Made by a program: the position numbers and the translations under genes. Source: a virus. From it: DNA of 64,000 nucleotides. The stretch lies in the IMG/VR virus record IMGVR_UViG_3300035687_000001; one strand, given 5' to 3'. The notes under the pieces are model-generated. The model worked only from the letters and a program-made list of their open reading frames with translations. It was not told the DNA's origin and searched no databases. Positions 4,471 to 64,000 of this stretch are shown here, piece by piece. Each line of letters starts with the position of its first letter. Position 1 is the first letter of the stretch.

Positions 4471-4477
4471 GAGGCCT

Positions 4478-5219: not shown

Positions 5220-5231
5220 TTGTGTCCGGGG

Positions 5232-5624: not shown

Positions 5625-5644
5625 GTGTCCTCCAATGTGGACAG

Positions 5645-7451: not shown

Positions 7452-7458
7452 GATCGGA

Positions 7459-7514
7459 CCTCCAGTGCGGTCGGGTGAGCCTCCAGGTTACCCTACCCAG
7501 AAGGGTAGGGTCAA
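7459..7514 (-). promoter_or_regulatory. promoter/operator/leader cassette P4 (class with -35-like hexamer abutting core)
   Basis: Box 7459-7470; core 7493-7508; TTGACC 7509-7514 directly abuts core; -10 candidate TAACCT 7485-7490 at 18 nt. Confidence 0.5.
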
Positions 7515-7518
7515 CCGG

Positions 7519-7614
7519 TTACAGAAAGCAGTACGCCGCCGCGAGCGTGAGGAACACGATGGCGGCGGCGCTGCCGACGAAGGCGCGCGCGATGCGCAGC
7601 CCAGTCGAAGACAT
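7519..7614 (-). CDS. small hydrophobic membrane peptide (31 aa)
   Basis: ATG 7614 after GGAG; MSSTGLRIARAFVGSAAAIVFLTLAAAYCFL; fills gap between 7622..7987 and P4. Confidence 0.45.
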   Translation of the reverse strand: MSSTGLRIARAFVGSAAAIVFLTLAAAYCFL

Positions 7615-7621
7615 GGATCTC

Positions 7622-7987
7622 CTACGGGGTAAAGGGAACGGTCGGGTGGAGCTGGAGCGTACCGTCCGCGCTCAGCTCCGAGATCAGGAAGTAGTTGTTG
7701 TGGCTCGGGTCCTTGGACCAGGCGTCCGGCCAGCGCGTCGACTGCCAGATCGCGATCTCGCCGACGAGGGTGAACTGGCTGACCCACTCCGCCGGGTTGT
7801 TCGTCAGCGGCGTCAGGGGGCTGAAGGCCAGCAGCTTCTCCAGGTAAGTCCGCATGAGCGGCCAGTTCGTCTCGGGGTTCGGGACGTCGGCGAAGTTGCC
7901 GACGATGGTGATCAGCGGCGTCTTGATCACATCCGGCGCGTTGATCGCGGTCAACTCGGCGATGGCGTGATCACCCAGTGCAGTCAT
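7622..7987 (-). CDS. hypothetical protein (121 aa)
   Basis: ATG 7987 (MTALGDHAI) after AAGGAG; track ORF 7622..8014 trimmed. Confidence 0.7.
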   Translation of the reverse strand: MTALGDHAIAELTAINAPDVIKTPLITIVGNFADVPNPETNWPLMRTYLEKLLAFSPLTPLTNNPAEWVSQFTLVGEIAIWQSTRWPDAWSKDPSHNNYFLISELSADGTLQLHPTVPFTP

Positions 7988-7998
7988 CTGATCTCCTT

Positions 7999-8042
7999 GG
8001 TCCGGCGGCTTCACCAGTTGAGGTGCATAAGGCCGCCGGACC
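7999..8042 (-). terminator. hairpin terminator after CDS 8051..8155
   Basis: 11-bp stem ggtccggcggc/gccgccggacc, 22-nt loop. Confidence 0.5.
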
Positions 8043-8050
8043 GCAGGAAA

Positions 8051-8155
8051 TCAGCGGCGCGGGCACTTCCCGATGTGGCCATCCGGCCAGCCGCCGCAGA
8101 TCGTGCACTGGTCCGGGTGCAGCACAGACAGCACGGTCTTCCACAGTCGTCTCAT
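8051..8155 (-). CDS. small CxxC..C zinc-ribbon-like protein (34 aa)
   Basis: ATG 8155 8 nt after CACTGGAGG; MRRLWKTVLSVLHPDQCTICGGWPDGHIGKCPRR; rest of track ORF 8051..8755 is R-rich shadow. Confidence 0.5.
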   Translation of the reverse strand: MRRLWKTVLSVLHPDQCTICGGWPDGHIGKCPRR

Positions 8156-8319
8156 GGCGCGTTCCTCCAGTGATCGTCGGTCCCGGCAGGGCGCCGCATC
8201 AGGATCCGCTCGCTGTTCTGGGCCACCCAGTGGCGGGCCCGCTCTTCGGTGGGAAAGGGCCCCAGGGTCTGGTTCGGGGCCTGGTCGGGGTAGCGGATGC
8301 CGTACTCGAAGCCGCCCAC
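8152..8319 (-). CDS. hypothetical protein (55 aa)
   Basis: GTG 8319 7 nt after GGAGGA; very high GC3; ATGA overlap with 8051..8155; VGGFEYGIRYPDQAPNQTLGPFPTEERARHW.. Confidence 0.55.
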   Translation of the reverse strand: MGGFEYGIRYPDQAPNQTLGPFPTEERARHWVAQNSERILMRRPAGTDDHWRNAP

Positions 8320-8322
8320 CGC

Positions 8323-8802
8323 TCAGTCCTCCGGCCAGTCCTTCGAGGTCAGGACCGACGAGTTGCCCTCCTGGTCCGTGGCCACGGTGATCAGCCCGGA
8401 CTTGCGCATGATGTGGTTCGTCGAGCCCATGCGCGAGGACATGTCCGGGAAGACCATCTTCTCCTCGTCCTCGCGCTCCTCCGGCTCGCCGTAGCACTCG
8501 GCGTTCGGGTCCACCTCGAACCAGGCGTGCCCGAAGCTGGACGCGAAGACCTTGCCGTTCTCGTACGCGTAGGCGTAGTCCGTCGTGCCCGAGTTCTCCC
8601 ACGGCCAGGGCCACGGCTCGGTCGGCCGCGTGACGTCGTCGCGCGCGGCGAAGAACGCCGTCACGGCCGTGCGGTACTCGTGCTCGGTCGTCGGGAAGAA
8701 GACGGCGTCGTCGATCCCGGCCGGGTAGCCGTCCCAGGTGATGGAGCCCAGCCACTCAGCCTTGCGGCCGCGCCCCACGTAGAAGTCCGCTCGTGTGCCC
8801 AT
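8323..8802 (-). CDS. hypothetical protein (159 aa)
   Basis: ATG 8802 (MGTRADFYVGRG) 8 nt after AAGGAG; alt ATG 8808 is too close to the SD; track ORF 8323..8886 trimmed. Confidence 0.7.
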   Translation of the reverse strand: MGTRADFYVGRGRKAEWLGSITWDGYPAGIDDAVFFPTTEHEYRTAVTAFFAARDDVTRPTEPWPWPWENSGTTDYAYAYENGKVFASSFGHAWFEVDPNAECYGEPEEREDEEKMVFPDMSSRMGSTNHIMRKSGLITVATDQEGNSSVLTSKDWPED

Positions 8803-8804
8803 GG

Positions 8805-9158
8805 TCATTTCTCCTTCGGTGTGATGTTGTCGGTCTGCTCCAGGAGCTGCTGGAGGGCCTGAAGATCGGAGATCTCCCCTTCCCACAGCTCGATGCGCTT
8901 CCGTCGTCGAGCGATGCGGTCCCTGACCGACTCCACGGAGAAGCTGTCCGGGCGCTCGAAGGTGACCGGCACCGTGAGAGCGCGCAGCCGGAAGTTGTGT
9001 CGGACCTGTCCCTCAGCGCCGATCACGTGCGCAATCGGCCACGAGGATCGCCCATCTCGTACCGGGCGCGCCAGCAGCAGCCACCAGCCTCCGTGGTAGA
9101 TGAACATCCCCGGACGCAGATGGCTGATCGCCCACTCGCGGCGTGGAGGCGGCGTCAC
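8805..9158 (-). CDS. hypothetical protein (117 aa)
   Basis: GTG 9158 in GTGA overlap with stop of 9155..9640; alt internal ATG (MFIYHGGWW); track ORF 8805..9551 trimmed. Confidence 0.55.
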   Translation of the reverse strand: MTPPPRREWAISHLRPGMFIYHGGWWLLLARPVRDGRSSWPIAHVIGAEGQVRHNFRLRALTVPVTFERPDSFSVESVRDRIARRRKRIELWEGEISDLQALQQLLEQTDNITPKEK

Positions 9159-9640
9159 TGCTCCACCAACGGCTCGAAGCGCACCAGGACGAAGCGCGTC
9201 TCGCCGGGCCCGAGGTAGCTGTTCGCTCGGTGCTTGACCACGCGCTCGGCCACCTCCTCGGTGATCAGCACCCGCGACTTGTCCGGGTCGCTGAAGCGCG
9301 CGACCTCGACCTCGGCGCCGAGAGGGAGATCGCCGGACATCCCCATCAGGAACCACTCCGAGCCGAAGGCGGGCATCCGGATGAACTTCGGCGGCTCTCG
9401 CCGGAAGTGGTACTTGCCGTCCGGGATGCGCGGGAGCCGCCCCGTCTGGTGGCAGGCTGCCCAGTGCTCGTCGGCCGCCTCGATCAGCTGGTTCAGCGGC
9501 AGGAAGGCGACGGACTCGCCGAGCACGGCGTGCTCTCCAGGGCGCGGGCAATCGAGGTGCACCAGCTGCCAGCGCTCATAGCCGTTGTTGAGTGGCTGCT
9601 GCACGGGCATGCCGACGAACTGGCCGTAGGGGATCGACAT
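9155..9640 (-). CDS. hypothetical protein (161 aa)
   Basis: Track ORF, normal composition; start overlaps stop of 9640..9855. Confidence 0.75.
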   Translation of the reverse strand: MSIPYGQFVGMPVQQPLNNGYERWQLVHLDCPRPGEHAVLGESVAFLPLNQLIEAADEHWAACHQTGRLPRIPDGKYHFRREPPKFIRMPAFGSEWFLMGMSGDLPLGAEVEVARFSDPDKSRVLITEEVAERVVKHRANSYLGPGETRFVLVRFEPLVEQ

Positions 9641-9855
9641 CAGTTACCGCCTGCCACTGCTCCTGCGATGGCGATGTTGACCGCCAGCTGGGTGTTCGGA
9701 TCCAGTGCGCCACCACCGCCGCTTGCGGGCGGCTTCGGCGGCTTGTTCCACGGGTCGTTGCCCGTGAGGTAGACGTGCAGCCGCTGCCACCACGGCCGGT
9801 GACCCGGCTTCCGCCGGGCCCAGGCTGGCTCATCGAAGCCGTCCCACATGCCCAT
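9640..9855 (-). CDS. hypothetical protein (71 aa)
   Basis: Track ORF; coupled to both neighbours. Confidence 0.6.
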   Translation of the reverse strand: MGMWDGFDEPAWARRKPGHRPWWQRLHVYLTGNDPWNKPPKPPASGGGGALDPNTQLAVNIAIAGAVAGGN

Positions 9856-10037
9856 CAGCTCTTCCTCCAGGGATAGCCGTTGTTCAGCAGGCCACCGAGC
9901 ACAACGGCCAGCAAGGCGGTGGGTACGCCGATCGCGGCCGAGCCGCCCAGGAACAGGGTCAGGGCGGTCGTCGCCAGCGACACGCTGAAGACGACGTAGA
10001 GCGCAGCTCGGACCCGGCGCCGTGCGGTCGCGGTCAT
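9855..10037 (-). CDS. small membrane protein (60 aa, two hydrophobic helices)
   Basis: ATG 10037 in ATGA overlap with stop of 10034..10297; MTATARRRVRAALYVVFSVSLATTALTLFLGG.. Confidence 0.6.
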   Translation of the reverse strand: MTATARRRVRAALYVVFSVSLATTALTLFLGGSAAIGVPTALLAVVLGGLLNNGYPWRKS

Positions 10038-45691: not shown

Positions 45692-46494
45692 AGCTGCCCG
45701 ATGGCGGCAAGCTCGTGTCCTGGGCGGGCTTCATCTTCGGCACGGCGGTGTCGGTCGCCGCGAACGTGCTGGCCGCCCGGATCCCGCCGGATCACGCCGC
45801 GCCGGACTGGGCGCCCCGCATTGACACCCAGCTGGGCTCGGCCGTGTGGCCGCTGGCTCTGCTGCTCTCGATCGAGGTGCTCGCCCGGGTCGCCTGGCCC
45901 AAGGGCCTCTGGTGGAGCGTCGCGCGCTTCGGCGGCCTGAGCATCGTGGCCAGCGGCGCGTTCGTCATCTCCTACCAGCACATCAACCACGTGCTGGCCT
46001 CGTGGGGTTACGAGTGGCTGAGTCAGGGCGTCGGCCCGCTGGTGATCGACGGCCTGATGGTCATCTGCGGTGTGGCGATGCTGGCCAAGCCGGGCACGCT
46101 GCGCAAGCTGCTCGCGGGCAAGGACGAGCCGGAGCAGGACGTCACCCCCAAGGCCCCGAAGTCGATGCTGCGGCCGGTGAACGAGTCGAACATCGTCGGT
46201 CTGGGCAAGCCCTCGCCTGCCGAGGAGTCGCTGACCCTGGCCGACCTGGAGCACGACGTCCCGGTGCAGCGCACCAACGGCCACCGGGTGTCGACCGCGC
46301 TGAAGAGCGGCCCGAAGGCGCCCGCGCGCCGGACGTCGGGCAAGAGCGACGAGGAGATCGCCGCCGTGCTGCGCGCGGAGATCGAGCGCCGGGAGAGCCC
46401 GGACCTCACCAAGCGTGGCGTGATGACGCGATTCGGCATCGGCGCGCCGCGCTGGGCCCAGATCACCGAGCTGCTGAAGAAGGAGGAGTCGTGA
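45688..46494 (+). CDS. DUF2637-like membrane protein with C-terminal HTH-like tail
   Basis: GTG 45688 5 nt after GAGGAGGG; four TM helices, AFVISYQHINHVLASWGY..GPLVIDGLMV signature; track ORF 45616..46494 trimmed. Confidence 0.75.
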   Translation: MKLPDGGKLVSWAGFIFGTAVSVAANVLAARIPPDHAAPDWAPRIDTQLGSAVWPLALLLSIEVLARVAWPKGLWWSVARFGGLSIVASGAFVISYQHINHVLASWGYEWLSQGVGPLVIDGLMVICGVAMLAKPGTLRKLLAGKDEPEQDVTPKAPKSMLRPVNESNIVGLGKPSPAEESLTLADLEHDVPVQRTNGHRVSTALKSGPKAPARRTSGKSDEEIAAVLRAEIERRESPDLTKRGVMTRFGIGAPRWAQITELLKKEES

Positions 46495-48548
46495 GCGGAG
46501 AGTCAAAGGGGGTGGTGAAGGAGATCCTCGGCACGGCGGGCGGAGTCCTCGTTGCCGAGGGGATCGGGCGGGGGTGGAAGCGCGGCCGCAGGCTGATGTT
46601 CCGCTGGCGGCGCGCGCTCACCCCGCTGTGGTTCGGGTTCCTGATCTTCCTCACCTGCGTCATCTGGCGCTGGCAGATCCCGCAGTGGTGGCCGGTCGTG
46701 CTGACCGTGCCGGTCGGCGGCCTGCTGCTGGCGATCTTCGGGCCGAAGCTGTCGGACCGCTGGTCCCGGGTGGCGATGGCGTTGGTGCCCAGCGGGCTCG
46801 ACAAGGGCAAGGACGGGGTGCTGGACCGGCTCGTGGAGCGGGTCTACTTCGGCACCTTGACGACCTACATCGGCACCTACATGGTCCTGCGGATCGTGGA
46901 CGGCTCCAGCTCGTTCTCGGGCTGGATGTGGCAGCTCGGCGTGGCGGGCTTCGGCGGCGCCTGGTGGTACCACCGCCGGGTGCGGGTCGCCGGGCGCGCC
47001 GACCGATTCGCGAAGAAGTGGCCGAAGCTGTCCGACAAGACGACCTGCCCGCCCCGGCTCGTGCCGCTGGTCAACTCGAAGGTGGTCGACGCGCGGGCGT
47101 ACGGGAAGACCTCGAAGCTGAAGATCCGGCTCGGCGAGGGCCACACCGTGGACTCGGTGGCGCACCTACGTGACGCGCTGGCGAGCTTCTTCGGCATGCG
47201 GCCGCAGTCGGTGTTCATCGCGCCGGACGAGGATCAGGCTCGCAATGTGATGATCACGTTCCTGCCGAAGGACCCCTGGAGCGGCAAGATCGCGCACCCG
47301 GTCTTCACCGGCGACGTCAAGCCGGGCGAGACCAGCCTGAAGTCGATGGGCAAGCGCTTCGCCATGGGTCTGTACGCCCACGGCGAACGCATCATGTACC
47401 AGCTCCAGCACACGCTCGTCGTCGGCGCGTCCGGCTCGGGCAAGTCGGGCTGGCTGCACTCACTGATGACGTGGCTGGTCAGCTTCTGCGACGTCGTGGT
47501 GGTCGGCATCGACATGGCCGCCGGGGCGACCCTGGGCGTCTGGCGCAAGACCCTGGCGCTCCCGCTCGCCGAGGAGATCGACGCGGCGATCATCATCCTG
47601 GAGCGCGTCTTCGGCGTGATCCGGGACCGGGAGGCCCGGCTGGGTCTGGCCTCGGAAGACGACGATGACGCCGAGGACAGCTTCGAGCCCTCGCGTAAGA
47701 CCCCGTGGCTGATCCTGGTGATCGACGAGTTCCCGGACCTGCTGGCCGAGGCGAAGGCGACCACGAAGTACAACGAAGACGGCAAGGCCGACGGCAACTA
47801 CCTGGCCTACGTCATCGCCCTGCTGTCGCGCATCGCGAAGAAGGCGCGCAAGTGCGGGGTCCGGATCGTCATCGCCTCTCAGAACGGGACCAAGGCGGAC
47901 CTGGGCTCGAAGGAGATGCAGGCCCAGCTGCGCGCGATCGTGGGTCTGAGCCTGGACCCGCAGCAGTCGAAGAACCTCTGGCAGAACGACATGCACCGGG
48001 GCTGGAACTCGACGAACCTACGGGACGGCCAGTTCCTCCTGAAGGACGACGAGCACGGGACTCCGGACCCGGGCAAGGGGTACTGGGTCGAGAACAAGGA
48101 CCGCCGGGACCTCGTCAAGAAGGTGGCGCCGAAGGGGTACCGCGAGGTCTATCTGGAACCGACCGCGTGGGCCATCCTCACCGGCGAGGTCGAGCCCGAG
48201 ACCGTCGAGGGTGAAGTCATCGCGGAGGAGACCTTCGGTCCCGAGTACGCGGTCCTGGAGTACCTCCGGGTCGAGGCCAAGGACGGGGCGAAGGTGGAGA
48301 CCATCTCCGACGTCCTGACCCGGGCCAAGGAGGAGACCGGCGGGTCCGGGCCCGGTACCAGCCGGGCGACGATCTACCGGCACCTGGAGAAGCTGGAGAA
48401 GGGCGAGCTGGTCATCCGCAACGGCGGCGGCGAGGGCTTCTGGAAGGCGGCCGCTGTCACGACCACCACGCCGGTGCCCGAGCCCCGTACGGAGATCGAG
48501 GGGCCGGTGGTGATCGCCAGCATCCAGGGCGAGGCGATGGCGGAGTAG
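46491..48548 (+). CDS. TraB/FtsK/SpoIIIE-family DNA translocase (N-terminal TM, ATPase, C-terminal wHTH)
   Basis: GTG 46491 after AAGGAGGA, GTGA-coupled; Walker A GASGSGKSG, Walker B LILVIDEFPDL, VRIVIASQ; C-terminal SRATIYRHLEKLEKGELV wHTH; track ORF 45846..48548 trimmed. Confidence 0.85.
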   Translation: MSGESKGVVKEILGTAGGVLVAEGIGRGWKRGRRLMFRWRRALTPLWFGFLIFLTCVIWRWQIPQWWPVVLTVPVGGLLLAIFGPKLSDRWSRVAMALVPSGLDKGKDGVLDRLVERVYFGTLTTYIGTYMVLRIVDGSSSFSGWMWQLGVAGFGGAWWYHRRVRVAGRADRFAKKWPKLSDKTTCPPRLVPLVNSKVVDARAYGKTSKLKIRLGEGHTVDSVAHLRDALASFFGMRPQSVFIAPDEDQARNVMITFLPKDPWSGKIAHPVFTGDVKPGETSLKSMGKRFAMGLYAHGERIMYQLQHTLVVGASGSGKSGWLHSLMTWLVSFCDVVVVGIDMAAGATLGVWRKTLALPLAEEIDAAIIILERVFGVIRDREARLGLASEDDDDAEDSFEPSRKTPWLILVIDEFPDLLAEAKATTKYNEDGKADGNYLAYVIALLSRIAKKARKCGVRIVIASQNGTKADLGSKEMQAQLRAIVGLSLDPQQSKNLWQNDMHRGWNSTNLRDGQFLLKDDEHGTPDPGKGYWVENKDRRDLVKKVAPKGYREVYLEPTAWAILTGEVEPETVEGEVIAEETFGPEYAVLEYLRVEAKDGAKVETISDVLTRAKEETGGSGPGTSRATIYRHLEKLEKGELVIRNGGGEGFWKAAAVTTTTPVPEPRTEIEGPVVIASIQGEAMAE

Positions 48549-53652: not shown

Positions 53653-53904
53653 TCAGACGCGGGAGCGGGTGAGCTTGCGACGCTCGTCGGGGGTCGTGCC
53701 GCCGAAGATGCCGTGGTCGAGACCGTTCTCCAGGGCGAAGCCCAGGCAGACCTCCCTGACCGGGCAGGTGCCGCAGACCGCCTTCGCCTGCGCCGTCTGC
53801 CGCTCGCCGGGCCCGAACTCGGAGACCGGGAAGAACAGCTCCGGGTCCTCGTCCTTGCACGCGGCGAAGTCGCTCCACGCGAACTGTCCGATGCGCTCGT
53901 TCAT
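53653..53904 (-). CDS. whiB: WhiB-family Fe-S transcription factor
   Basis: Track ORF; four Cys (C..CGTCPVREVC) plus GIFGG turn and basic tail; GAGGAGG before ATG. Confidence 0.9.
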   Translation of the reverse strand: MNERIGQFAWSDFAACKDEDPELFFPVSEFGPGERQTAQAKAVCGTCPVREVCLGFALENGLDHGIFGGTTPDERRKLTRSRV

Positions 53905-55160: not shown

Positions 55161-55526
55161 CTATTGACGGTGCTTGAGAGGGCCCACGGACCGCTCGAAG
55201 GCGTCCAGCACGGGTGTCGGGACCTTCCCCCGGGTGCTGACCCTCATGCCCTGCTGGTTGGCCCAGGCGCGAACATCGGCCAGCTCGGCGCGCTTGGCCT
55301 GCGCCGGGGTCATGTCCCGGCGGGCCTCCACGTCGATCAGCGGCCGCGCCGCCGTGACGTACTCGATCAGCGCCGCACGCAGGTCCTTGGCGTTGCGGTC
55401 GGAGAGGTCGATGACGTAGCTCGTGCCGTCGATGCCGAAGACGATCTCCTCGTCCGCCGCGATGTCGAGGTTGCCGCGCTGGCGCTCCAGGTCGTCGACC
55501 CGGCGACGGATCACTTGTTCCGCCAT
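55161..55526 (-). CDS. lsr2: Lsr2-like nucleoid-associated protein
   Basis: ATG 55526 after GGGAGG; N-terminal VDDLERQ..EIVFGIDGTSYVIDLSDRNAKDLRAAL and C-terminal VRAWANQQGMRVSTRGKVPTPVLDAF match the Lsr2 dimerisation and AT-hook-like domains; track ORF 55161..55601 trimmed. Confidence 0.85.
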   Translation of the reverse strand: MAEQVIRRRVDDLERQRGNLDIAADEEIVFGIDGTSYVIDLSDRNAKDLRAALIEYVTAARPLIDVEARRDMTPAQAKRAELADVRAWANQQGMRVSTRGKVPTPVLDAFERSVGPLKHRQ

Positions 55527-55636
55527 TACGGCCTCCCTTTCCGTCGGATTCTGCTGGACATTGCGCAGAGTTCTGAGGGTATTCAAGCGTATATCACTCA
55601 CCTCTTTCGATCAATAAGCGCAGGGACTTCGATACG

Positions 55637-55676: not shown

Positions 55677-56219
55677 TCAGGCCTTGCTCGCGCACTCGTC
55701 GCCGATGCCCGCCGCGCGGGTGTGCTCCCGGGTGAGGCGCTTGCCGCACTTCCAGCACGTGCGGGTCTCCTGGCCAAACCGCACCCCGGCGGCCTCCAGG
55801 TCGGTCGCAGCCAGCTTGCGCAGCACGCCCGCCGCCGCCTTCGCCGGAAGCTTGCGCTGCTCGTCGGAGGCGTAGACGTACACGGCGGTGTTGACGTCGT
55901 TCTTGACCGCGACACGGTAGAAAGCCAGCGCGCCCTCGTTGTTGTCGATCGCGTAGCGGCCCGCCGGGATGAACGGCACCGGCTCGTTCGCCTTGACGTG
56001 AGCCGCGCGGCGGGCGGAGCGCTTGAGGTCGATCAGGGTCTGGATCTCGTGGCTGGCCCGGCTCATGGTCAGCGAGCCACCCTTGCTCAGGTGCGCCAGG
56101 TGCGTCCACGTCTCGCGGGCGGCCTCGACGTTGAACTCGGCGTACTCGGCGCAGAGCGTCTTCAGAGTCTCAACCTGAGCCGGAGTCGCGGTGCGGGTCT
56201 CGTGGCTGGTGCTGTTCAT
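55677..56219 (-). CDS. hypothetical protein with C-terminal CxxC GIG zinc-ribbon (DUF6011-like)
   Basis: ATG 56219 5 nt after GGAGG of cassette P29; C-terminus TCWKCGKRLTREHTRAAGIGDEC. Confidence 0.7.
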   Translation of the reverse strand: MNSTSHETRTATPAQVETLKTLCAEYAEFNVEAARETWTHLAHLSKGGSLTMSRASHEIQTLIDLKRSARRAAHVKANEPVPFIPAGRYAIDNNEGALAFYRVAVKNDVNTAVYVYASDEQRKLPAKAAAGVLRKLAATDLEAAGVRFGQETRTCWKCGKRLTREHTRAAGIGDECASKA

Positions 56220-56224
56220 CTCTG

Positions 56225-56287
56225 CCTCCGGTGCGGCGCTTCGTGCTGTCGAGATGAACACTACCCGTTCGGGTAGGGTGACGTCAA
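56225..56287 (-). promoter_or_regulatory. promoter/operator/leader cassette P29
   Basis: Box 56225-56236; core 56261-56276; TTGACG(56282-56287)-18-TAGTGT(56258-56263). Confidence 0.6.
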
Positions 56288-56715
56288 CCCTCGTCCTCGG
56301 CCTCGATGATGATGATCGCGTTCGGCAGCGGCAGGAGGGCGCGGTCGATCTCCTTGATCAGGAAGCCGTCCGGCTCGATGCCCTGCTCGCGGCACACGCG
56401 GTTCTGCACGACGTCCACCCAGACCCAGAAGGAAGCCCAGTCGACGCGCTGGCGGCCGAAGGCGACCCGGGGAAGCTGGAGTCCCGCCAGCCACGGATGC
56501 TGCCGGTGCAGCTCCTCGCGGAGGCACTCGACCACCGGCGGCGGGTAGAAGGTCAGCGCGGGCAGCCCGATGCCCGAGATCCGCCACATCAGCGGCAGCA
56601 GGCCCTGGTTCTCGGGGATGTCCAGGCGGGCGCGCACGTGCAGGCTGAGCAGGTCGACGAAGTGGAACCTCTCCGGGACATCGAAGAGGCTCACTCCGCC
56701 GCCGGGCTCGCTCAT
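56284..56715 (-). CDS. hypothetical protein (143 aa)
   Basis: ATG 56715 (MSEPGGGVSLFDVPERF) in ATGA overlap. Confidence 0.7.
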   Translation of the reverse strand: MSEPGGGVSLFDVPERFHFVDLLSLHVRARLDIPENQGLLPLMWRISGIGLPALTFYPPPVVECLREELHRQHPWLAGLQLPRVAFGRQRVDWASFWVWVDVVQNRVCREQGIEPDGFLIKEIDRALLPLPNAIIIIEAEDEG

Positions 56716-57080
56716 GACGCTGGCGGAGTCGCGAGATCTTCGAGGTCGATGCCCGGCGGCGGCGCGAAGCCGTTGCCGACCTCGGCGATCTTCTGCCGGA
56801 AGTTGCCCAGCAGGTCCTTGACCATCTCGCGCGCGTAGGCCTCGTCCACGCCAGCCGAGATGAACACCGTGTTGGCGAACCGCTGGAGACCGTTGTTGAT
56901 CGGGACCTCGGCGTAGAGCACCAGCGAGCTGACCATCCGCTGCTTCTCCGTCGGGTGCGGGAGGGTGCACAGGCCCAGCTCCCAGCGGACGTCGAGGCCT
57001 TGGCCGTGCTCGGCGAAGGCCTCCTCGAACCACGGCTCGACGGTCGCGAACAGCCGCTGGGGGCCGGGCGTGGCGGTCAT
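56712..57080 (-). CDS. hypothetical protein (122 aa)
   Basis: ATG 57080 (MTATPGPQRLFATVEPW) in ATGA overlap. Confidence 0.7.
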   Translation of the reverse strand: MTATPGPQRLFATVEPWFEEAFAEHGQGLDVRWELGLCTLPHPTEKQRMVSSLVLYAEVPINNGLQRFANTVFISAGVDEAYAREMVKDLLGNFRQKIAEVGNGFAPPPGIDLEDLATPPAS

Positions 57081-57430
57081 TCGCCCTCCTCGGGAATCAG
57101 GTCGAGCAGCTTGAACATGTCGTCGAAGGACAGCCGGACGTACCCGCGCCCGTCCTTCGTCGGCGCCACCTTCTCCGGCGTGACGCCGAACTCCTTCAGC
57201 TCCTGCGTGAGCTGGAGGGTCTCCAGGAACATCTCGCGGTTGCGCTCGGTGTTCGGGATGCTGTTCTGCTCGAAGTCGTAGAGCATCTTCTGGTAGACGT
57301 CCGGGGGCATGTCCTCCGGGAACTTCAGGTCCAGGAAGTCGGTCTCGGCAATCAGCCGGGTCACTTTGCGCTCGAACTGCCAGTCCCGGGCTGCGGGGTC
57401 GTAGCGAGCGCTCACCTTCGAATACGGCAT
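57077..57430 (-). CDS. hypothetical protein (117 aa)
   Basis: Track ORF; orphan box cctccagtgcgg 57441-57452 upstream without palindrome. Confidence 0.75.
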   Translation of the reverse strand: MPYSKVSARYDPAARDWQFERKVTRLIAETDFLDLKFPEDMPPDVYQKMLYDFEQNSIPNTERNREMFLETLQLTQELKEFGVTPEKVAPTKDGRGYVRLSFDDMFKLLDLIPEEGE

Positions 57431-57506
57431 TTCCCTCGCTCCTCCAGTGCGGATCGGTTGGCCTTATGGTCTCACACCGTTGGCCGCACGCCAGCATCTG
57501 TGATGA

Positions 57507-59666
57507 TCACCGGGCTGGAGCCGGGCTGTTGCTCCAGTCTGCCGGAGCGGCGAGGGAACCGGGGTCCTCCGTGGCCCGGCGGTGACAGTCGAAGAGCTTT
57601 TGCATCAGGCCTTTCTGATCCAGGGCCTTCTCGATGACGTTGCGCGGATCCCACCAGCCCTCGCCGTTCGGGCCGAAGGCGTCGGAGCGGTTGGCGTGCA
57701 CGAACTCCCAGAAGGCGGCGCCGTTCTGGGTCCGGTAGGGCTCCGGCATGGCCAGGATGCCCTCGGCCGCCTCGACCATGCCCTTGACCTCCTCGGCGAT
57801 CCCCGGGCCCTCGGGGAAGCTTTTGAGCGACCAGTCCGGCAGGTGCGGCGGCTTCACGAGCCACTGGTCGGTCACCACGTCGTAGGCCGCGTACGGCCGG
57901 ATCTCGGCGATGTCCCAGCCCTGGAGGTTGGCGAACCAGGTCTGGTCGTAGGTGCCCTCGACGCCCGGGAAGACGTGCTGCGGGTCGTTCAGCTCGGCGT
58001 GCATCTCCCGGGTGAAGCGCGCGGCGATGTCGGCGTCGGAGGCCCAGACGTCCGCGTGGTTGTGCAGCCGGTAGCTGAAGTAGTGGATACCGATCGAGAG
58101 GTCGAAGTCGCTGTTGCCGTGCAGGTCCGGCGCCGTCCACTCGCTGGCCTCGGAGCCGAAAAAGACGATCTTCGCCCAGTGCGGCCAGCCCGCGTAGCCG
58201 TGCCGCTCGCAGAACTCGGTGAACTGCCGGACCACCGAGCTGCGCACGGCCAGCTTGAGCTGCTCGCCGTCCCAGAGCCGGGTGTCCAGGCCGTAGGTCG
58301 GGCCGAACAGCCGCTCTGTGGGCGCCACGTAGCGGCCGCTGCGCCGGGCGCCCTGCTCGTAGGCCTCGTCGTGGTTGCCCGCGCTGAGCACGTGCAGCTC
58401 GTCGCCGTCGTACCGGTGCACCACGCGGTTCAGGAAGTTCAGGTTGGTGGCCTGCCAGCCCTTCAGCGCGCCGTTGAGCGCGTGCGTGGACGGGTGCGGC
58501 TCGCCGCGCCGGAGGCCGTCCACGCGCTCGTGGTAGGCCGTCTGGACGTTCCTCGGCAGCTTGGCCAGGTCCCGGGAGACCTTCGGGTGTTCGGTCAGCG
58601 GCCGGAGTGCTCCTCGTGCGCCCTCTCCGTCGGAGTCCCCGCCGGAGTCCGGTGCCAGTGCTCGCGCGGAGTTGCCTTCCGACGGCGCAGCTCCGCGCGC
58701 CACGTCGGGTGCCACGTGCCGTGGCTTTCCCTTCCCTGCGATTCGGCCATCGTGTTCCTCCATCAGGTCCGAGACGCTCTTGTCGGAGTACTCACCATCG
58801 TGGCTGATTGAGCCGTCAGCGTGCTCCCAGCCGTTCTGCGGGTCGAACTCCACTGGCAATCCGCAGGGGCAGCGGAGCTGCTCCTGGGCCCCGCGCCGAG
58901 GCATCCTGGTCAGCTCGTGCTCGGGGACCTCGCGCAGCACCCGGAAGCCGTGCGGGCTCCGCACGTCGGCGTCGTAGCCCGGGTCCGGCTCCAGCGCGTG
59001 CGCCGGGCCGGAGTGCTCGACCTGGTAGACCCGGGGGCGGCCGCCGGTGTCGATGCCGGACATCTCGGCGTAGCTGCGTGCCATCTGCGGGTCGTGCGTC
59101 GCGTAGGCACGGTCGGTCCGCGTCAGGCCGGTGGACACTTCCCCCTGGCCGTGTCGGTCGGCGGGCACCACGTTGTCCAGGTCGCGCGAGGTTCCGTGGT
59201 AGAGCGGCCGGGCCGCCGCTCTCTTAAAACCCAGGCGCCGCCGGTTGGTGCGATCCTGCACTGAGGTGCCGTTCCGGTAGGTCATCCGGTCCGCGAGGAT
59301 CCGGTGGTGGCCACCGCCGATCCAATGCTCGCCGTTGTGCTCCCAGGTGCTCGGCTCGCCGGGGCGCGGGCCGATGCCCCCGCCGCCGGTGTAGGGGTGG
59401 CGGATGTAGTGCTCCAGCCCGCTCTTGTAGAGAGTGTCCTGAGACGTGTGCAGCGGGACGTTGGCCGGGTGGTGCACCGAGCCAGCCTCCGAGGGATGGA
59501 CCATGTGGTCGTCGTCGACATCACCGGCCTCCCACGGATCTTCGTCGTGGTGGTGGATGCCGTGCTCGCGCATCAGGTGGGCGGCGTCGGAGCCGGAAAT
59601 GATCTCGTCGTACCCGTGCAGCTGATGCAAGGCGTGGCGCTGCACATGGTCCAGATCATCTTCCAC
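57507..59666 (-). CDS. polyvalent protein: ParB-like + Arr-type ADP-ribosyltransferase + Zn ribbon + RelE/ParE-like + nucleotidyltransferase domains
   Basis: Track ORF (719 aa), GTG after GAGGAGG; WIGGGHHRILA; LYHGTS..YATHD..ARSYAE..GRPRVYQVEHSGP..EPDP..FRVLREV; CPCG; KLPRNVQ..LNGALKGWQATNL..RVVHRY..HVLSAGNHDEAY; VFFGSEAS..SDFDLSIG. Confidence 0.8.
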   Translation of the reverse strand: MEDDLDHVQRHALHQLHGYDEIISGSDAAHLMREHGIHHHDEDPWEAGDVDDDHMVHPSEAGSVHHPANVPLHTSQDTLYKSGLEHYIRHPYTGGGGIGPRPGEPSTWEHNGEHWIGGGHHRILADRMTYRNGTSVQDRTNRRRLGFKRAAARPLYHGTSRDLDNVVPADRHGQGEVSTGLTRTDRAYATHDPQMARSYAEMSGIDTGGRPRVYQVEHSGPAHALEPDPGYDADVRSPHGFRVLREVPEHELTRMPRRGAQEQLRCPCGLPVEFDPQNGWEHADGSISHDGEYSDKSVSDLMEEHDGRIAGKGKPRHVAPDVARGAAPSEGNSARALAPDSGGDSDGEGARGALRPLTEHPKVSRDLAKLPRNVQTAYHERVDGLRRGEPHPSTHALNGALKGWQATNLNFLNRVVHRYDGDELHVLSAGNHDEAYEQGARRSGRYVAPTERLFGPTYGLDTRLWDGEQLKLAVRSSVVRQFTEFCERHGYAGWPHWAKIVFFGSEASEWTAPDLHGNSDFDLSIGIHYFSYRLHNHADVWASDADIAARFTREMHAELNDPQHVFPGVEGTYDQTWFANLQGWDIAEIRPYAAYDVVTDQWLVKPPHLPDWSLKSFPEGPGIAEEVKGMVEAAEGILAMPEPYRTQNGAAFWEFVHANRSDAFGPNGEGWWDPRNVIEKALDQKGLMQKLFDCHRRATEDPGSLAAPADWSNSPAPAR

Positions 59667-59698
59667 GGATCCTCCTCGGGTTCGCTCGTTGGGCGCGA

Positions 59699-60307
59699 TC
59701 AGTGGCGGCTGAACAGCCAGATCAGCAGCACGGTGGCGCCCAGGGTGACCACGTTGGCGATCAGGCGGCGGCGGCGCTCGCGCTTCTCCTCGTCGGAGAC
59801 GAACACGTCGAAGCGGATGTCGGTCAGCTTGTCGTAGCGCGGCGCCGGGGCGTGGTTCAGCGCGTGCCGGTAGGCCACTACGAGGAAGGGCAGCGCGACC
59901 CAGATCCAGGGAATGACGTCCGGCGCCAGGCCGAGCAGCACCAGCGAGAGGAAGGCGAACATGCCGACCGCGTAGTGCACGCGGCGAATGGCGTCGTGGC
60001 GGCTCTCAGCGCGCACAGCGGCCCCGGCAAGGCGCTCGTTCTCCCGGCGGACCAGGTCGATGTCCGGCATGCCGTAGAGCCGCTCGTCACGGGTGTCGCG
60101 GTACCAGTAGACGCCGTCGCTGACGTCGATCTGCACCAGGTACTTGCGCGCGTCGGACTCTCGCTGCGGGTAGCTCAGGGCCCAGACGTCCCAGGCCGGG
60201 CCGATCTGGTCCTCGTAGGTGACGTCGAACTCGACGTCCTCGGCCGGGGGCTGCTCGCGGTAGTCGCGGCGGACCTCTTCCCAGCTCAGGGGCTCGAAAT
60301 CGGTCAT
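59699..60307 (-). CDS. membrane protein (202 aa, three C-terminal TM helices)
   Basis: Track ORF; first gene after cassette P30. Confidence 0.75.
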   Translation of the reverse strand: MTDFEPLSWEEVRRDYREQPPAEDVEFDVTYEDQIGPAWDVWALSYPQRESDARKYLVQIDVSDGVYWYRDTRDERLYGMPDIDLVRRENERLAGAAVRAESRHDAIRRVHYAVGMFAFLSLVLLGLAPDVIPWIWVALPFLVVAYRHALNHAPAPRYDKLTDIRFDVFVSDEEKRERRRRLIANVVTLGATVLLIWLFSRH

Positions 60308-60312
60308 GGCAG

Positions 60313-60369
60313 CCTCCAGGTGGTGGGCGGGTCACCACTCATACTACCCGAATGGGTAGGGTAGGTCAA
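60313..60369 (-). promoter_or_regulatory. promoter/operator/leader cassette P30
   Basis: Variant box cctccaggtggt 60313-60324; core 60344-60359; TTGACC(60364-60369)-17-TAGTAT(60341-60346). Confidence 0.6.
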
Positions 60370-60680
60370 CGAGGCATCTGGACACCGGCGCGCTGGTGCG
60401 TCCGCTCGAAGGCCGAGCGGCTCATCCCGAGCTTGACGATGATCTCCATCCGCTTCAGGCCCTGCTCGGCCAGGAAGGTGGTCTCCTCGATGACCTCGGC
60501 CGCGCGGCGGTAGACCGTCGGATAGTCGTCGAGCACGCCGTGCCCCCTGGCCCAGGCGAAGCAGCGGCGGCAGAGGTGCCGGGACTTGTGCACGACGAAG
60601 CCCGGGGGCGGCTGAGTTTCCACCGTCCCCGGGACCATCGGCCAGTCGCACCTCTTGCAAGGCGGCAGGCTGGATTTCAC
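60366..60680 (-). CDS. DNA-binding protein (N-terminal CxxC..CxxC zinc ribbon + C-terminal HTH)
   Basis: Track ORF; CKRCDW..CRRCFAW then EIIVKLGMSRSAFERTHQRAG. Confidence 0.65.
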   Translation of the reverse strand: MKSSLPPCKRCDWPMVPGTVETQPPPGFVVHKSRHLCRRCFAWARGHGVLDDYPTVYRRAAEVIEETTFLAEQGLKRMEIIVKLGMSRSAFERTHQRAGVQMPR

Positions 60681-60880
60681 TCGCTCGGCACCTCGTTCTG
60701 GACCGCGTAGCGCTCGTCGAGCGCTTCCGCCACGAGGTCGAGCAACATGGCCCGCTCCGCCGCCCGGCGCGAGCGACGCTGGAGCGTCCTTGCGGCGGTG
60801 GGGGCGGACGAGATGCAGACGATCTTGTGGTGGGTGTGATGACGAGCAGCGCGGTCCCGGTGAACGGCAGTGGCTTCCAT
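60677..60880 (-). CDS. hypothetical protein (67 aa)
   Basis: ATG 60880 7 nt after GGAGG of cassette P31; track ORF 60677..61174 trimmed. Confidence 0.6.
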   Translation of the reverse strand: MEATAVHRDRAARHHTHHKIVCISSAPTAARTLQRRSRRAAERAMLLDLVAEALDERYAVQNEVPSE

Positions 60881-60887
60881 GACTTTG

Positions 60888-60949
60888 CCTCCAGTGCGGC
60901 GGTGTTCCTTGACCTCTCCAACACTACCCAACCGGGTAGTGCGTGTCAA
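60888..60949 (-). promoter_or_regulatory. promoter/operator/leader cassette P31
   Basis: Box 60888-60899; core 60924-60939; TTGACA(60944-60949)-17-TAGTGT(60921-60926); -35 overlaps terminase stop. Confidence 0.6.
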
Positions 60950-62916
60950 CGCCTCCGGCGGTGCGGGTTGCGCGCGGGGTTCAGGCCTCCGGCGCGCACC
61001 CGCGACCGGCCGCCGGGGATCAGCTGGTCGAAGACCTGCCGGTCGGCCTCCTGGCGCTGGTACGGGTTGAAGCCGCCCTGCTGGCCGGTCACGATGTTCA
61101 TCTCGCGCAGCATGCCCGCCTGCCAGTTCCGGACCTGCTCGCCGAGGATGGTCCAGACCACTTCCATCATGCACCTGGCCACGTCGTCATGGACAACGGG
61201 CCCGGTGTCCTGGTGCACGACGCGGTTGGTGGTCGCGGTGGTCTTCAGCTGGAGGAACTTCAGCTCCAGCTCGGCGGTCTCGTACCAGGGCGCCTCGACC
61301 CAGCCCTGGTTGATCGCGACCTTGAAGCACTCGGCCACCTGCCAGTTGTGCTTGGCGTCGGACTTCTGCTCGAAGATCGTCATGCGCTTCGGCGCGCGGT
61401 TCTGCCGGACCTTGCGGTTGAGCCGCTGGATCGGCATGGCCGAGTTGTGCTGGTCGAAGGTGAACTCGTCGATCTTGAAGCCCCAGATGATCTCCCACAG
61501 CTCGACGTCCACGACCTGGATGTAGTCGATCGTGTGGTCGGGGAACTCGGCCGGATCCCAGTGGTGGAGCAGATCGAAGCGGCAACGGAGGAAGCCGTCC
61601 TCGTGCTCCTCGGCGTGGCCGACCGCGAGGCCGAAGTTGTCGTTGACCTTCGATGGGTCCGCGTGTCCTTTGTAGAACGTCGTGAGGTTCTTGGCCGTGC
61701 GGGTCATCGCGAGATCGCTCTGGAAGATCGCCTCGACCTTCTTCGGGTCCAGGTAGGCGTCCACGACCGACTGCCAGTGCGAGCGCCGCTCGACGGCGAA
61801 GGTGTCGGGGTTGGCCCGCTCCAGCTTCTCCATCCGCTCGTCGTACTCCTGGATGGCGCCCTTGAGCCGCTGGAAATTCGGGTGCGGGCGCTCCAGGTAC
61901 TCCCCGAGGTCGCCGGTGAACTCCGCCGGGAAGACGGGCAGCATGTGCGCGTCTTTCCAGTCGTAGTAGATCTCCCAGCTGGCCAACTGGAGCATCATCA
62001 TCTCGGGGTACTCGGGGTTGCCCTCCTCGTCGAAGGCCAGCGTCATCTCCCAGTTCGCGTAGAACTGGCCGATCTGCTGCCAGGGGCTCGACGGATCGAT
62101 GATGAAGCCGTCCATCTTGAACTGGTCGAGCGACGGCGTCGCGCTGCCGTAGACCTCTTCCGCCGACCGCCCTGCGCCCGAGGGCACCACGTGCGCCATC
62201 TCGTCGAAGCCGAGCCCGAAGGATGCCGGGCCACGCGCGGACATCAGCGTGGCCTCCTTCGGCTGGATCGTGAAGGTCGCCATGTCCCGCGCGGTGTTGA
62301 TCCCGCGCTGGTTCTGCCGCCGCAGCCGGACGAAGTCGTGCGGGGCGTAGATGGTCAGGTTCTCGCCGAGCGACCGGGAGATGTACTTGGCGAAGCACGG
62401 GGCGCCCTGGATGACGTTGACGACGTCCTTCCAGAGGTTCTCCCGGGCCTGCTGCTTCTTCCCGGCGTAGATGAACATCGCCAGCTGCTTGTCGCGGTCG
62501 ATCCCGTAGTACTCCTGGGGATCGCCCTTGGCCATGAAGCGCCAGAGCACGTAGGCCATGGCCAGCGCCGAGACGTAGCCCTTCCCGGCGCGGCGGCCGA
62601 GGACCAGCAGGACCTCGCGGAAGTAGAAGTAGCCCTTGAGCCGGAGCGAGGCCATCCGCTGGCGGATCTTCGGCACGATGCCGTTGTTCCCGTGGCGATC
62701 GAAGGAGTCCTCCCACTCGTCGATGACCATGTGGTCGTACTCGGTGAGGAGGTCGTTGCGCAGGAAGATGACCTTGAGCAAGGTCGCCTGACGCGGGTAG
62801 AGTTGCCCCCGGCCACACCAGCGCGGGCTGATCGCGAAGGTGATGGGGTCAGGAACCGGCAGCCCCGTGAACGCTGCGAAGTCCACGGGGCTGAAGGCCG
62901 GAGGCGAGAGGGTCAT
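60946..62916 (-). CDS. terL: terminase large subunit
   Basis: ATG 62916 in ATGA overlap with 62913..63500; Walker A-like LGRRAGKGY, Walker B GFDEMAH, C-terminal nuclease-type region; first 113 codons of track ORF 60946..63255 are R/G-rich shadow. Confidence 0.9.
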   Translation of the reverse strand: MTLSPPAFSPVDFAAFTGLPVPDPITFAISPRWCGRGQLYPRQATLLKVIFLRNDLLTEYDHMVIDEWEDSFDRHGNNGIVPKIRQRMASLRLKGYFYFREVLLVLGRRAGKGYVSALAMAYVLWRFMAKGDPQEYYGIDRDKQLAMFIYAGKKQQARENLWKDVVNVIQGAPCFAKYISRSLGENLTIYAPHDFVRLRRQNQRGINTARDMATFTIQPKEATLMSARGPASFGLGFDEMAHVVPSGAGRSAEEVYGSATPSLDQFKMDGFIIDPSSPWQQIGQFYANWEMTLAFDEEGNPEYPEMMMLQLASWEIYYDWKDAHMLPVFPAEFTGDLGEYLERPHPNFQRLKGAIQEYDERMEKLERANPDTFAVERRSHWQSVVDAYLDPKKVEAIFQSDLAMTRTAKNLTTFYKGHADPSKVNDNFGLAVGHAEEHEDGFLRCRFDLLHHWDPAEFPDHTIDYIQVVDVELWEIIWGFKIDEFTFDQHNSAMPIQRLNRKVRQNRAPKRMTIFEQKSDAKHNWQVAECFKVAINQGWVEAPWYETAELELKFLQLKTTATTNRVVHQDTGPVVHDDVARCMMEVVWTILGEQVRNWQAGMLREMNIVTGQQGGFNPYQRQEADRQVFDQLIPGGRSRVRAGGLNPARNPHRRRR

Positions 62917-63500
62917 CCCTGGACGGTCTCGGAACCCCGGAAGCGCCGCGCGTCGTCCGGGAACCGCTCGCTGTAGGCACTGGTCGACATCCGCTCGCCC
63001 GAGGGCCACAGCTCGACCATGTCGCCGTCGTCGGTGGCCCAGCTGACGAACGCGGGCTCGTTGCCGGTCAGCTTCGCCTTCTGGAGCGCGTAGACCCGGG
63101 CCTTGTCCGGCGAGTCCTCCTCGGCGGCGACCTCGGGCAGATCGCGGTTCGTGAAGCACACGAACGCGCCGTACACAGCCATGCTCTGCTCCTTTGTGGA
63201 TTTGCGGAGGATCAGGTTGTACTCGACCCGGTCGCCCTCCGCCTTGCGTCCCCACCGGCTCGTAAGGACGTCGAACTGATCACCGTTGACCTCCAGCGCC
63301 GAACCGACCTCGGGAAGGTCGAAGGGGAACACCCCGAAGCCGCTGATGCCGCGATAGTCGTCCTGGCTCGCGGCATGACGCCACGCGAGGAAGGCAGCAC
63401 GCACGTCCAGGACGCTGGACTCTCGGGGCGCAGGAAGACCGGCCACCACGCACCCGGCGAGCAGCGCGGCCAGCTCCTCGGTGGTCTTCCGCTCGCTCAC
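62913..63500 (-). CDS. hypothetical protein (195 aa); small-terminase role suggested only by position
   Basis: Track ORF, coupled to terL; no recognisable motif. Confidence 0.7.
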   Translation of the reverse strand: MSERKTTEELAALLAGCVVAGLPAPRESSVLDVRAAFLAWRHAASQDDYRGISGFGVFPFDLPEVGSALEVNGDQFDVLTSRWGRKAEGDRVEYNLILRKSTKEQSMAVYGAFVCFTNRDLPEVAAEEDSPDKARVYALQKAKLTGNEPAFVSWATDDGDMVELWPSGERMSTSAYSERFPDDARRFRGSETVQG

Positions 63501-63772
63501 TTGACCTCCGACGGCTCCACGGCGAAGCCCTCGTCCTTCAGGCCCTTGCTGGCCAGGAACTCGTCCCAGCTCAGCTCGGTGTCGTCGATCAGCCGGACGT
63601 GGCGGGTGTCGCCGATGTCGTAGCCGATGCCGACCGGCTCGCGTCCGGCCTTGGCGAGATTCCGGCAGACACGGTTGGCGCGCTCCCGGGCAGCCTCCAC
63701 GGTCTCGGCACGCACCTCGGTGAAGACCAGGGTGCCCCTGTCGTCGTTGATCGCGGTCGCCTGCACGCTCAT
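63497..63772 (-). CDS. hypothetical protein (91 aa)
   Basis: Track ORF; coupled. Confidence 0.7.
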   Translation of the reverse strand: MSVQATAINDDRGTLVFTEVRAETVEAARERANRVCRNLAKAGREPVGIGYDIGDTRHVRLIDDTELSWDEFLASKGLKDEGFAVEPSEVK

Positions 63773-64000
63773 CAGTGGTGGTGTCCCTTCGTGTACTGCC
63801 GGACGATGTCGTCGAGGTTGCGCTCGGCCCTGATCACGCTCGGGCCGTCGTTCTTCAGGCCCAGCAGGTTGGACTGGACCTCGTGCGCCATCCGGTCGTG
63901 GTCGAACTCATGCCGGTCGACGCGTCCCTGGATCTCGACGTCGAAGCTCCACAGGTCCGGCACGTGCTCCACCATCGACTCGCCGGTGAGCGGGTGCTGG
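63772..64000 (-). CDS. hypothetical protein, partial (5' end may lie beyond window end)
   Basis: Track ORF 63772..63975; frame stays open to nt 64000 so start uncertain. Confidence 0.55.
   Translation of the reverse strand, partial: QHPLTGESMVEHVPDLWSFDVEIQGRVDRHEFDHDRMAHEVQSNLLGLKNDGPSVIRAERNLDDIVRQYTKGHHH

Follow-up and report, generated by a model that had tools for sequence, protein, structure and literature searches.

The 64-kb stretch of viral DNA IMGVR_UViG_3300035687_000001 (hereafter the window) has a GC content of approximately 68% and carries nearly all of its genes on the minus strand. One of these genes, located at 57507..59666 (-), encodes a 719-amino-acid (719-aa) protein that an earlier note on this DNA, made from the letters alone, had read as a polyvalent protein, in which several modules are strung together in a single open reading frame (ORF). 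The gene is genuine and complete. According to the ORF list, it begins with a GTG start codon at 59666 and ends with a TGA stop codon at 57507-57509, and a Shine-Dalgarno sequence (GAGGAGG, 59671..59677, -) can be read 4 nt 5' of the GTG. The GC contents at the three codon positions (GC1/GC2/GC3 of 0.71/0.47/0.91) are typical for coding DNA in the window, and a 100% identical 719-aa protein (P0001) was found in a public metagenome collection, where the contigs that carry it measure up to 155 kb.

The protein was compared with 49 close homologues from a large protein collection and with a wider set of 188 family proteins (P0001-P0188). Each module turned out to be a separately movable unit, found in 9 to 47 of the 49 homologues and in the wider set, which bears out the multi-module claim. 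The segments proposed in the earlier note correspond to aa 75-128, 150-250, 265-290, 358-437, and 447-530, and they agree with the module boundaries derived from the homologues. The motifs that it quoted lie where it had placed them, namely WIGGGHHRIL at aa 115-124, RPLYHGT at aa 153, CPCG at aa 266, TEHPKVSRD at aa 358, HDEAY at aa 432-436, VFFGSEAS at aa 501, and SDFDLSIG at aa 519. Upon examination by family profiles and structure models, all five assignments survived, with differing strengths, and the catalytic-type residues were found to be kept. Profiles restricted to the 49 close homologues yielded weak signals (E 1.3 for Arr and 0.17 for RelK); significance was reached only once module copies from a representative search were added.

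The region of aa 153-252 (58911..59210, -) can be assigned with confidence, from its sequence, to the Arr family of ADP-ribosyltransferases (ARTs), with a putative catalytic triad of H157, Y188, and D228 intact. A profile of this module that includes the query (A4) matched the Arr structures 2hw2 and 9iaf of the PDB at E 1.3e-12 and ARR-2 (9iba) at 1.9e-11, and the alignment spans Arr residues 15-114. The Pfam family Arr-ms (PF12120) matched 16 of the 24 copies of the module (best E 2.6e-14), and ART-PolyVal matched 2 of the 24; the copy of the query alone scored below the E 0.1 threshold of the Pfam search. The columns of H157, Y188, and D228 are invariant or nearly so and align with Arr positions 19, 49, and 84, which we take to be the catalytic H-Y-D residues of these enzymes. 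The module resembles the rifampin ADP-ribosyltransferases over the full length of the profile, including the histidine of YHGT, the tyrosine of (A/V)Y, and the aspartate of (E)PD. However, the Arr enzymes are stand-alone resistance proteins of approximately 140 aa, and the module described here is embedded in a 719-aa phage protein.

A second toxin-type module lies at aa 358-443 (58338..58595, -) and is preceded by a basic low-complexity leader (aa 303-357, 58596..58760, -), in which GRIAGKGKPRH is followed by a stretch rich in G, A, P, and D. By sequence comparison, the module belongs with high confidence to the RelE/ParE superfamily and has a YoeB/YafQ/RelE-type RNase-like fold. Its profile (A5) matched the YoeB structures 7bwf and 6l8e at E 2.8e-6 and 3.6e-6 and Escherichia coli YoeB (2a6q) at 8.8e-4, as well as RelK (3oei, 4.8e-5), RelE (9g12, 6.7e-4), and a YafQ-family toxin (9lew, 2.3e-3). 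ParE_toxin (PF05016) of Pfam matched 11 of the 27 copies (best E 7.4e-5), and YoeB_toxin (PF06769) was matched at 2.6e-4. The RelE/ParE toxin signature seen in the earlier note is thus well supported, and two relatives are named YafQ by the Joint Genome Institute (JGI). Five conserved residues, H395, R414, H417, H432, and Y436, mark the module. R414 aligns with the arginine in the EHRLVY strand of YoeB and H432 with the histidine at the C-terminal end of this toxin, and in alignment A5 the columns H84 and Y88 do not vary. By comparison with YoeB and YafQ, R414, H432, and Y436 are presumably catalytic. The likeness to these toxins extends over the length of the fold and includes the positions of R414, H432, and Y436; at the position of H395, the YoeB alignment has a glutamate instead of a histidine. 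The setting differs as well, since the fold is one part of a larger fusion protein and always follows the conserved basic GKGKPR leader, which adjoined the RelE-like module in all 35 of the close homologues that carry the leader; a unit of GRGKPRR plus RelE also occurs in distant relatives. Because no antitoxin family was matched in either flanking gene and because the module is internal to a fusion, it is to be regarded as a toxin fold and not as a type II toxin-antitoxin system.

The N-terminal module (aa 1-143, 59238..59666, -) was examined by profile and fold comparison. Its core, at approximately aa 62-138 (nt 59253-59483, -), contains LHTSQ (aa 72-76) and GGHHR (aa 118-122). The core (aa 68-127) aligned with the other ParB-like modules of the family with an hhalign probability of 96.2% (E 2.4e-9), and these sister modules in turn matched the ParB structure 4umk weakly (E 0.016). 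The residues G119-H120-H121-R122 are invariant in all copies of the N module and in the sister ParB-like modules; judged by eye, the arginine of GHHR may by its position be the conserved GxxR arginine of the superfamily. An AlphaFold2 (AF2) model of aa 1-152 reached a pLDDT of 85.5, and its 22 best Foldseek matches in the PDB all belong to the ParB/sulfiredoxin superfamily, at E values of 0.13 or higher. The module would share with this superfamily an alpha/beta core, which here bears a GxHHR motif, but it has no helix-turn-helix, dimerisation domain, or ParA partner, and it carries a family-specific N-terminal extension of approximately 60 aa. With moderate confidence, and on fold and profile comparison, aa 62-138 can be assigned to the ParB/sulfiredoxin fold, in agreement with the ParB/Srx segment proposed earlier.

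Between the ART module and the leader lies a small Cys/His module (aa 266-302, 58761..58871, -), a putative zinc-binding element of the form C266-x-C268...H282...H289. Across 48 to 51 unique copies, C266, C268, G269, H282, D284, G285, S286, and H289 are invariant. The C-x-C...H...H pattern is compatible with a four-ligand zinc site. For the zinc-ribbon-like element of the earlier note, this invariant pattern is the sole argument.

The rest of the protein is a 276-aa C-terminal domain (aa 444-719, 57510..58337, -), interpreted by motif and by the fold of its AF2 model. Its nucleotidyltransferase (NTase)-like core, at approximately aa 467-605 (nt 57852-58268, -), carries G504-S505 and D520-x-D522 and is followed by a helical half with H657, R660, N676, and K680; the approximately 190 residues that had been left unassigned are the second half of this conserved unit. 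In the AF2 model (pLDDT 83.7; numbered from the start of the model), a long helix (29-46) is followed by a strand (55-61) that ends in GS, a loop, a strand (77-84) with DxD, and then a helical lobe. In a set filtered to less than 50% identity, G504, D520, and D522 are invariant and position 505 is mostly serine, with glycine in three copies; T576, P591, Y592, A594, W602, H657, R660, N676, and K680 are invariant too. The candidates for a third catalytic carboxylate on the strand that follows, as judged from the alignment, are D585, which is nearly invariant, and D596, which varies among D, N, E, and S. Comparison with the viral predicted structures of BFVD gave 11 significant matches, one of which (E 9e-9) is named 'Polymerase, nucleotidyl transferase domain containing protein'; this relative is itself a predicted structure and the label is its UniProt name. 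A GS...DxD motif on strand-turn-strand is the arrangement of Pol-beta NTases, and aa 444-719 is a probable, not a proven, NTase. The Pol-beta-type motif recognised earlier thus has moderate support from the motif, the topology, the non-significant matches to CCA-adding enzymes in the PDB, and the significant NTase-named relative in BFVD.

The C-terminal domain is the most constant part of the family, being present in 47 of the 49 homologues. It forms 503 clusters at 50% identity and often lies inside proteins of 1000-3300 aa, and the domain family itself is undescribed, is absent from Pfam, NCBIfam, and PHROGs, and is widespread in phages. A word-indexed profile search of a large protein collection with this domain returned only 7 short unannotated matches. 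Since it is the constant part, we considered the domain as a MuF-like virion anchor. This was rejected as the leading idea because the domain is a stand-alone gene beside an endolysin gene in BRock-type phages, lies internally in giant proteins, and is missing from some polyvalent genes, such as P0048 and the second polyvalent gene of a Streptomyces contig described below (L004). The stand-alone genes are gp186 of LuckySocke (L001, 95522-96508) and gp39 of BRock (L002, 19282-20271), both annotated as hypothetical. The neighbour on their other side is a gene of approximately 168 aa, called 'phosphatase' in LuckySocke and hypothetical in BRock. At a distance of 5 kb downstream of the stand-alone gene of LuckySocke there is an ArdA-like anti-restriction gene.

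The distribution of the modules was determined by mapping six segments of the query on the 49 homologues. The segments behave as independent units that occur in several orders: the N-terminal segment (aa 1-152) was present in 9 homologues, the ART segment (aa 150-265) in 20, and the Cys/His segment (aa 262-306), which moves independently of the other modules, in 34; the leader (aa 303-357) was present in 35 and co-occurs with the RelE-like segment (aa 352-443). Among these homologues, the exact six-part order was found only in P0001. Adjacencies do recur, and the order ART, Cys/His module, leader, RelE-like fold, C-terminal domain is shared by P0005, P0007, and P0010. The earlier note had called the domain order unusual, but a RelE-like module beside the C-terminal domain is common within the family. 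The relatives interleave further modules, including GNAT, SprT-like HExxH peptidase, ART-PolyVal, NUDIX, 2H, and additional ParB-like modules, with GNAT as the commonest partner. When four giant relatives were scanned, two were found to have several GNAT domains, and NUDIX, 2H, SprT-like, and Arr-ms were each found in one.

A related phage on a 157-kb JGI contig (L003), approximately 89% identical in DNA to the window, provides direct evidence that otherwise near-identical phages exchange whole modules at fixed junctions. By blastn, the window and L003 share 85-90% DNA identity over approximately 8 kb, and the similarity is broken only inside the polyvalent gene. It ends at the start codon (59662) and resumes at 59237, which encodes aa 144, the first residue of a junction peptide, RLGFKRAAA (aa 144-152, 59211..59237, -). 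It ends again at 58357 (aa 437) and resumes at 58337 (aa 444), where the C-terminal domain starts. The ParB-like module of the window is replaced by a GNAT module in L003, which also carries 520 additional nt inserted between the RelE-like fold and the C-terminal domain. In the homologues, the RLGF/RLDF motif is seen again where modules join.

A second short motif was observed in the family. The tetrapeptide [GRHEAK][RK]T[AMILG] occurs 297 times in the 188 family proteins, compared with 134 +/- 12 times in shuffled sequences (2.2-fold). Its variants GRTA, RRTA, and GKTA are often located at junctions, and the counterpart in the window is GRIA (aa 307-310, nt 58737-58748). The xRTA motif precedes the GKGKPR leader in 19 of 51 cases, 15 of them as GRTA. 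The recurring xRTA may mark sites of proteolytic processing, or it may be no more than a conserved linker; the idea of a protease site was kept as an observation only, given that the motif precedes a minority of module starts.

Upstream of the polyvalent gene, on the same strand, lies a gene for a predicted 202-aa membrane protein (59699..60307, -), which has no family match and for which L003 has a 202-aa gene at the same position. A promoter-like site, TTGACC-17-TAGTAT (60341-60369, -), is located just 5' of this gene and is the only sigma-70-like promoter match in 56500-64000; no terminator-like site was found on the minus strand from the terminase gene to the polyvalent gene. The membrane-protein gene and the polyvalent gene may be co-transcribed. 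Further upstream are a gene for a 104-aa Cys-rich protein (60366-60680, -), which matched a PHROG of HNH endonucleases at E 3e-6 and had no Pfam match, and the gene for the terminase large subunit (60946..63255, -; phrog_2, E 1.2e-9), 1.3 kb from the polyvalent gene. The terminase shares approximately 33% identity with its counterparts in Rhodococcus phage E3 and in mycobacteriophages of approximately 155 kb.

Directly downstream of the polyvalent gene is a 117-aa gene, followed by genes for a DUF6011 protein (55677-56261, -), an Lsr2-like nucleoid protein (55161-55601, -; PHROG E 1.5e-23), and a WhiB-type regulator (53653-53904, -; Pfam E 2e-23). The order of the WhiB, Lsr2, and DUF6011 genes is the same in L003, and the locus is syntenic. 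A 900-aa FtsK/SpoIIIE-like protein (45846-48548, +; PHROG E 1.5e-15) is encoded on the strand opposite to almost all genes of the window. ARAGORN found no tRNA or tmRNA gene in the 64 kb, a partial survey of the window gave no sign of lysogeny functions, and the surroundings of the polyvalent gene showed no gene for a portal, capsid, or MuF protein.

The host of the phage is likely to be Streptomyces, because a scan of species-representative genomes revealed three Streptomyces assemblies (L004, L005, and L006) in which the C-terminal domain has relatives on stand-alone contigs of 152-157 kb. The match of these contigs to phage contigs in size suggests that the phages are maintained in culture, either in a carrier state or as extrachromosomal elements. 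One of the three contigs shows a coverage of 196 in its name. In L004 (Streptomyces sp. A0642, NZ_SSBL01000019.1), the region 2349-9923 holds a terminase gene (2349-4505) and then two adjacent polyvalent genes, of which only the first has the C-terminal domain, so the module set can be split over two polypeptides. The product of the first gene (667 aa) comprises GNAT, a CxxC finger, an ART-like module, and the C-terminal domain; that of the second (1043 aa) comprises an Arr-like ART, an HExxH peptidase, GRGKPR-RelE, and further modules.

The class of polyvalent proteins, including its mosaicism and its ART, GNAT, ParB, NTase, and BECR-fold RNase modules, was described by Iyer, Burroughs, Anand, de Souza, and Aravind in 2017 (PMC5512222), who proposed that such proteins are delivered into the host by packaging and injection. 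The 719-aa protein has disparate domains in one polypeptide, is encoded by a phage, with homologues on contigs of phage size (approximately 150-157 kb), and has a mosaic architecture among its relatives. It is a polyvalent protein as Iyer et al. (2017) use the term, and it represents a new family and not a new principle. The reading of the earlier note matches both the module shuffling of the family and the phage context. The resemblance to the described class extends from the domains (ART, ParB-like, NTase, and BECR-fold RNase, with GNAT and a zincin-like peptidase in relatives) to the mosaicism of orthologues, as in Helicobacter jhp1044, and to the closeness of the gene to a packaging gene. 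However, the ART described here is nearest to Arr-ms and not to the ART-PolyVal/HYD2 family, the RNase module is of the classical YoeB/RelE/YafQ type, and the NTase-like domain is a two-lobed unit of 276 aa outside Pfam, whereas the NTase of firmicute elements is minimal and NTox45-like. The protein also differs in lacking modules of the MuF, portal, DarA/DarB, and peptidase types (the SprT-like HExxH modules are found in relatives and not in the 719-aa protein) and in its actinobacterial host lineage. MuF toxins, other polymorphic phage toxins, and the packaged ART Alt of T4 are similar in that toxin-type modules near phage packaging genes are swapped as cassettes. In the present family the layout is the reverse, with a constant part that is C-terminal and enzyme-like and variable modules that are N-terminal, and there is no MuF domain.

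Collectively, we consider it probable (roughly 0.8) that this gene encodes a polyvalent multi-effector protein, with five independently folding and mobile modules, of a phage of approximately 155 kb that likely infects Streptomyces. The protein would be produced in the course of infection and might be packaged and injected, and it might also be cleaved at its junctions. The ParB/sulfiredoxin-fold module would act as an NTP-binding nuclease or NTPase, the Arr module as an NAD+-dependent ART through its predicted H-Y-D triad, the YoeB/YafQ/RelE-type module with its basic leader as a ribosome-dependent mRNase, and the C-terminal domain in Pol-beta-like nucleotidyl transfer. Acting in parallel on host RNA and translation, on DNA, and on NAD+- or NTP-modifiable targets, the modules might shut down the host or blunt its defences, and the rapid turnover of modules may reflect an arms race with these defences.

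Several results weigh against this reading. The 719-aa protein as the sole query gave no significant match in Pfam, PHROGs, or PDB sequences, and the identities of the modules therefore hold via family profiles and AF2 models only. Each of the 22 best Foldseek matches of the N-module model, all of them sulfiredoxin, ParB, Noc, KorB, or PadC, is non-significant (E 0.13-2.7, TM ~0.35), and so are those of the C-terminal model, led by CCA-adding and tRNA nucleotidyltransferases (E 0.07-0.5, TM ~0.2). Profiles of the C-terminal domain built from a close alignment, a diverse alignment, and the NTase core found no match in Pfam, NCBIfam, or the PDB. With regard to delivery, the 719-aa protein lacks a virion-anchoring domain, such as MuF or portal, and does not itself carry a peptidase module, and in Streptomyces phages of the BRock/LuckySocke type the C-terminal domain is encoded separately, by a gene of approximately 328 aa beside the endolysin gene, among DNA-metabolism genes. 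The adjacency of a gene to the terminase gene has been used as an indicator of head packaging (PMC9503650), and by this analogy the position of the polyvalent gene, 1.3 kb from the terminase gene on the same strand and likewise beside it in L003 and L004, is suggestive of packaging. It is weak evidence, because the terminase gene is not within a structural gene block and the window otherwise holds small early-type genes.

The question of packaging leads to the alternative that survives best, in which the modules and their activities are the same and the protein stays unpackaged; it would be made in the infected cell at an early or middle stage, serve host takeover or anti-defence, and act whole or cleaved. 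It accommodates the missing virion anchor such as MuF, the lack of a structural match in Pfam or PHROGs, the small regulator-type genes downstream (Lsr2, WhiB, and DUF6011), the stand-alone C-terminal domain among the DNA-metabolism and lysis genes of BRock and LuckySocke, and the promoter-like site 5' of the pair formed by the membrane-protein gene and the polyvalent gene. It is less easily reconciled with the recurrent position downstream of the terminase gene, read as the indicator proposed in PMC9503650, and a free RelE-type toxin made early would also strike the mRNAs of the phage. We regard this alternative as a serious possibility that falls short of being probable.

The ART module raises a different possibility, namely that the protein counters a chemical defence and that its Arr-like and NTase-like modules, together with the GNAT modules of relatives, inactivate anti-phage small molecules of Streptomyces or its neighbours. 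NTases that act on aminoglycosides and lincosamides are known, as are Streptomyces metabolites that inhibit phages. The characterised members of the family of the ART ADP-ribosylate rifamycins, and with GNAT as the commonest partner and Streptomyces as the likely host such a role would be in keeping. Stand-alone Arr genes have also been noted in actinophages, and antibiotic modification has been considered for them (PMC9503650). However, the RelE-type RNase, ParB-like, SprT-like, NUDIX, and 2H modules of the family proteins point to macromolecular or nucleotide targets, and Pfam and PDB profile searches detected no sequence link between the C-terminal domain and antibiotic NTases, which makes this explanation very unlikely.

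Still less credit can be given to the view that the gene is a phage-borne exclusion or abortive toxin cassette, whose RelE-like and ART modules kill or arrest the cell or competing phages. The RelE/YoeB fold does keep its catalytic-type residues, no adjacent antitoxin gene was recognised, and rapid module turnover is typical of defence islands too; but the gene lies in the core collinear backbone beside the terminase gene and not in a variable island, no lysogeny functions were seen in the partly surveyed window, and the architecture fits polyvalent effectors rather than known defence systems. That the protein is a non-enzymatic structural or scaffold protein with enzyme-like folds as decayed relics would agree with the empty searches of the lone protein and the far divergence of its sequence from characterised enzymes, but it is barely credible, since the H/Y/D of the ART, the H/R/H/Y of the RelE-like fold, the GS and DxD of the C-terminal domain, and the GHHR of the N module are invariant or nearly so across diverse copies, which argues for selection on activity.

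In the literature searched, we found no description of this protein family and no earlier report of an Arr-family ART or a classical YoeB/RelE-type fold in a polyvalent protein; the polyvalent reading extends both to this class, and the general picture of 2017 is unchanged. If the assignments hold, the locus would be a compact catalogue of the host processes that the phage targets, namely translation, NAD+-dependent modification, and nucleotide transfer. The near-identical relatives with swapped modules offer ready isogenic comparisons of module versus host defence.

The widespread and unannotated C-terminal NTase-like unit merits the definition of a family. In a more speculative version of the polyvalent reading, this domain would be a new phage-specific two-lobed NTase family and the hub of a Streptomyces-phage effector system, in which N-terminal enzyme cassettes (Arr-like ART, GNAT, RelE-type RNase, and ParB-like) are swapped by recombination at junction peptides and some of them neutralise small-molecule or nucleotide-based defences rather than attack macromolecules; taken as a whole, this version is unlikely. 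A minor observation concerns the extreme C-terminus of the protein (aa 703-719, 57510-57560 of the window), where the pattern AP.DWSN.P... is kept in many copies and lies outside the predicted helices. This conserved tail could be a targeting or interaction peptide.

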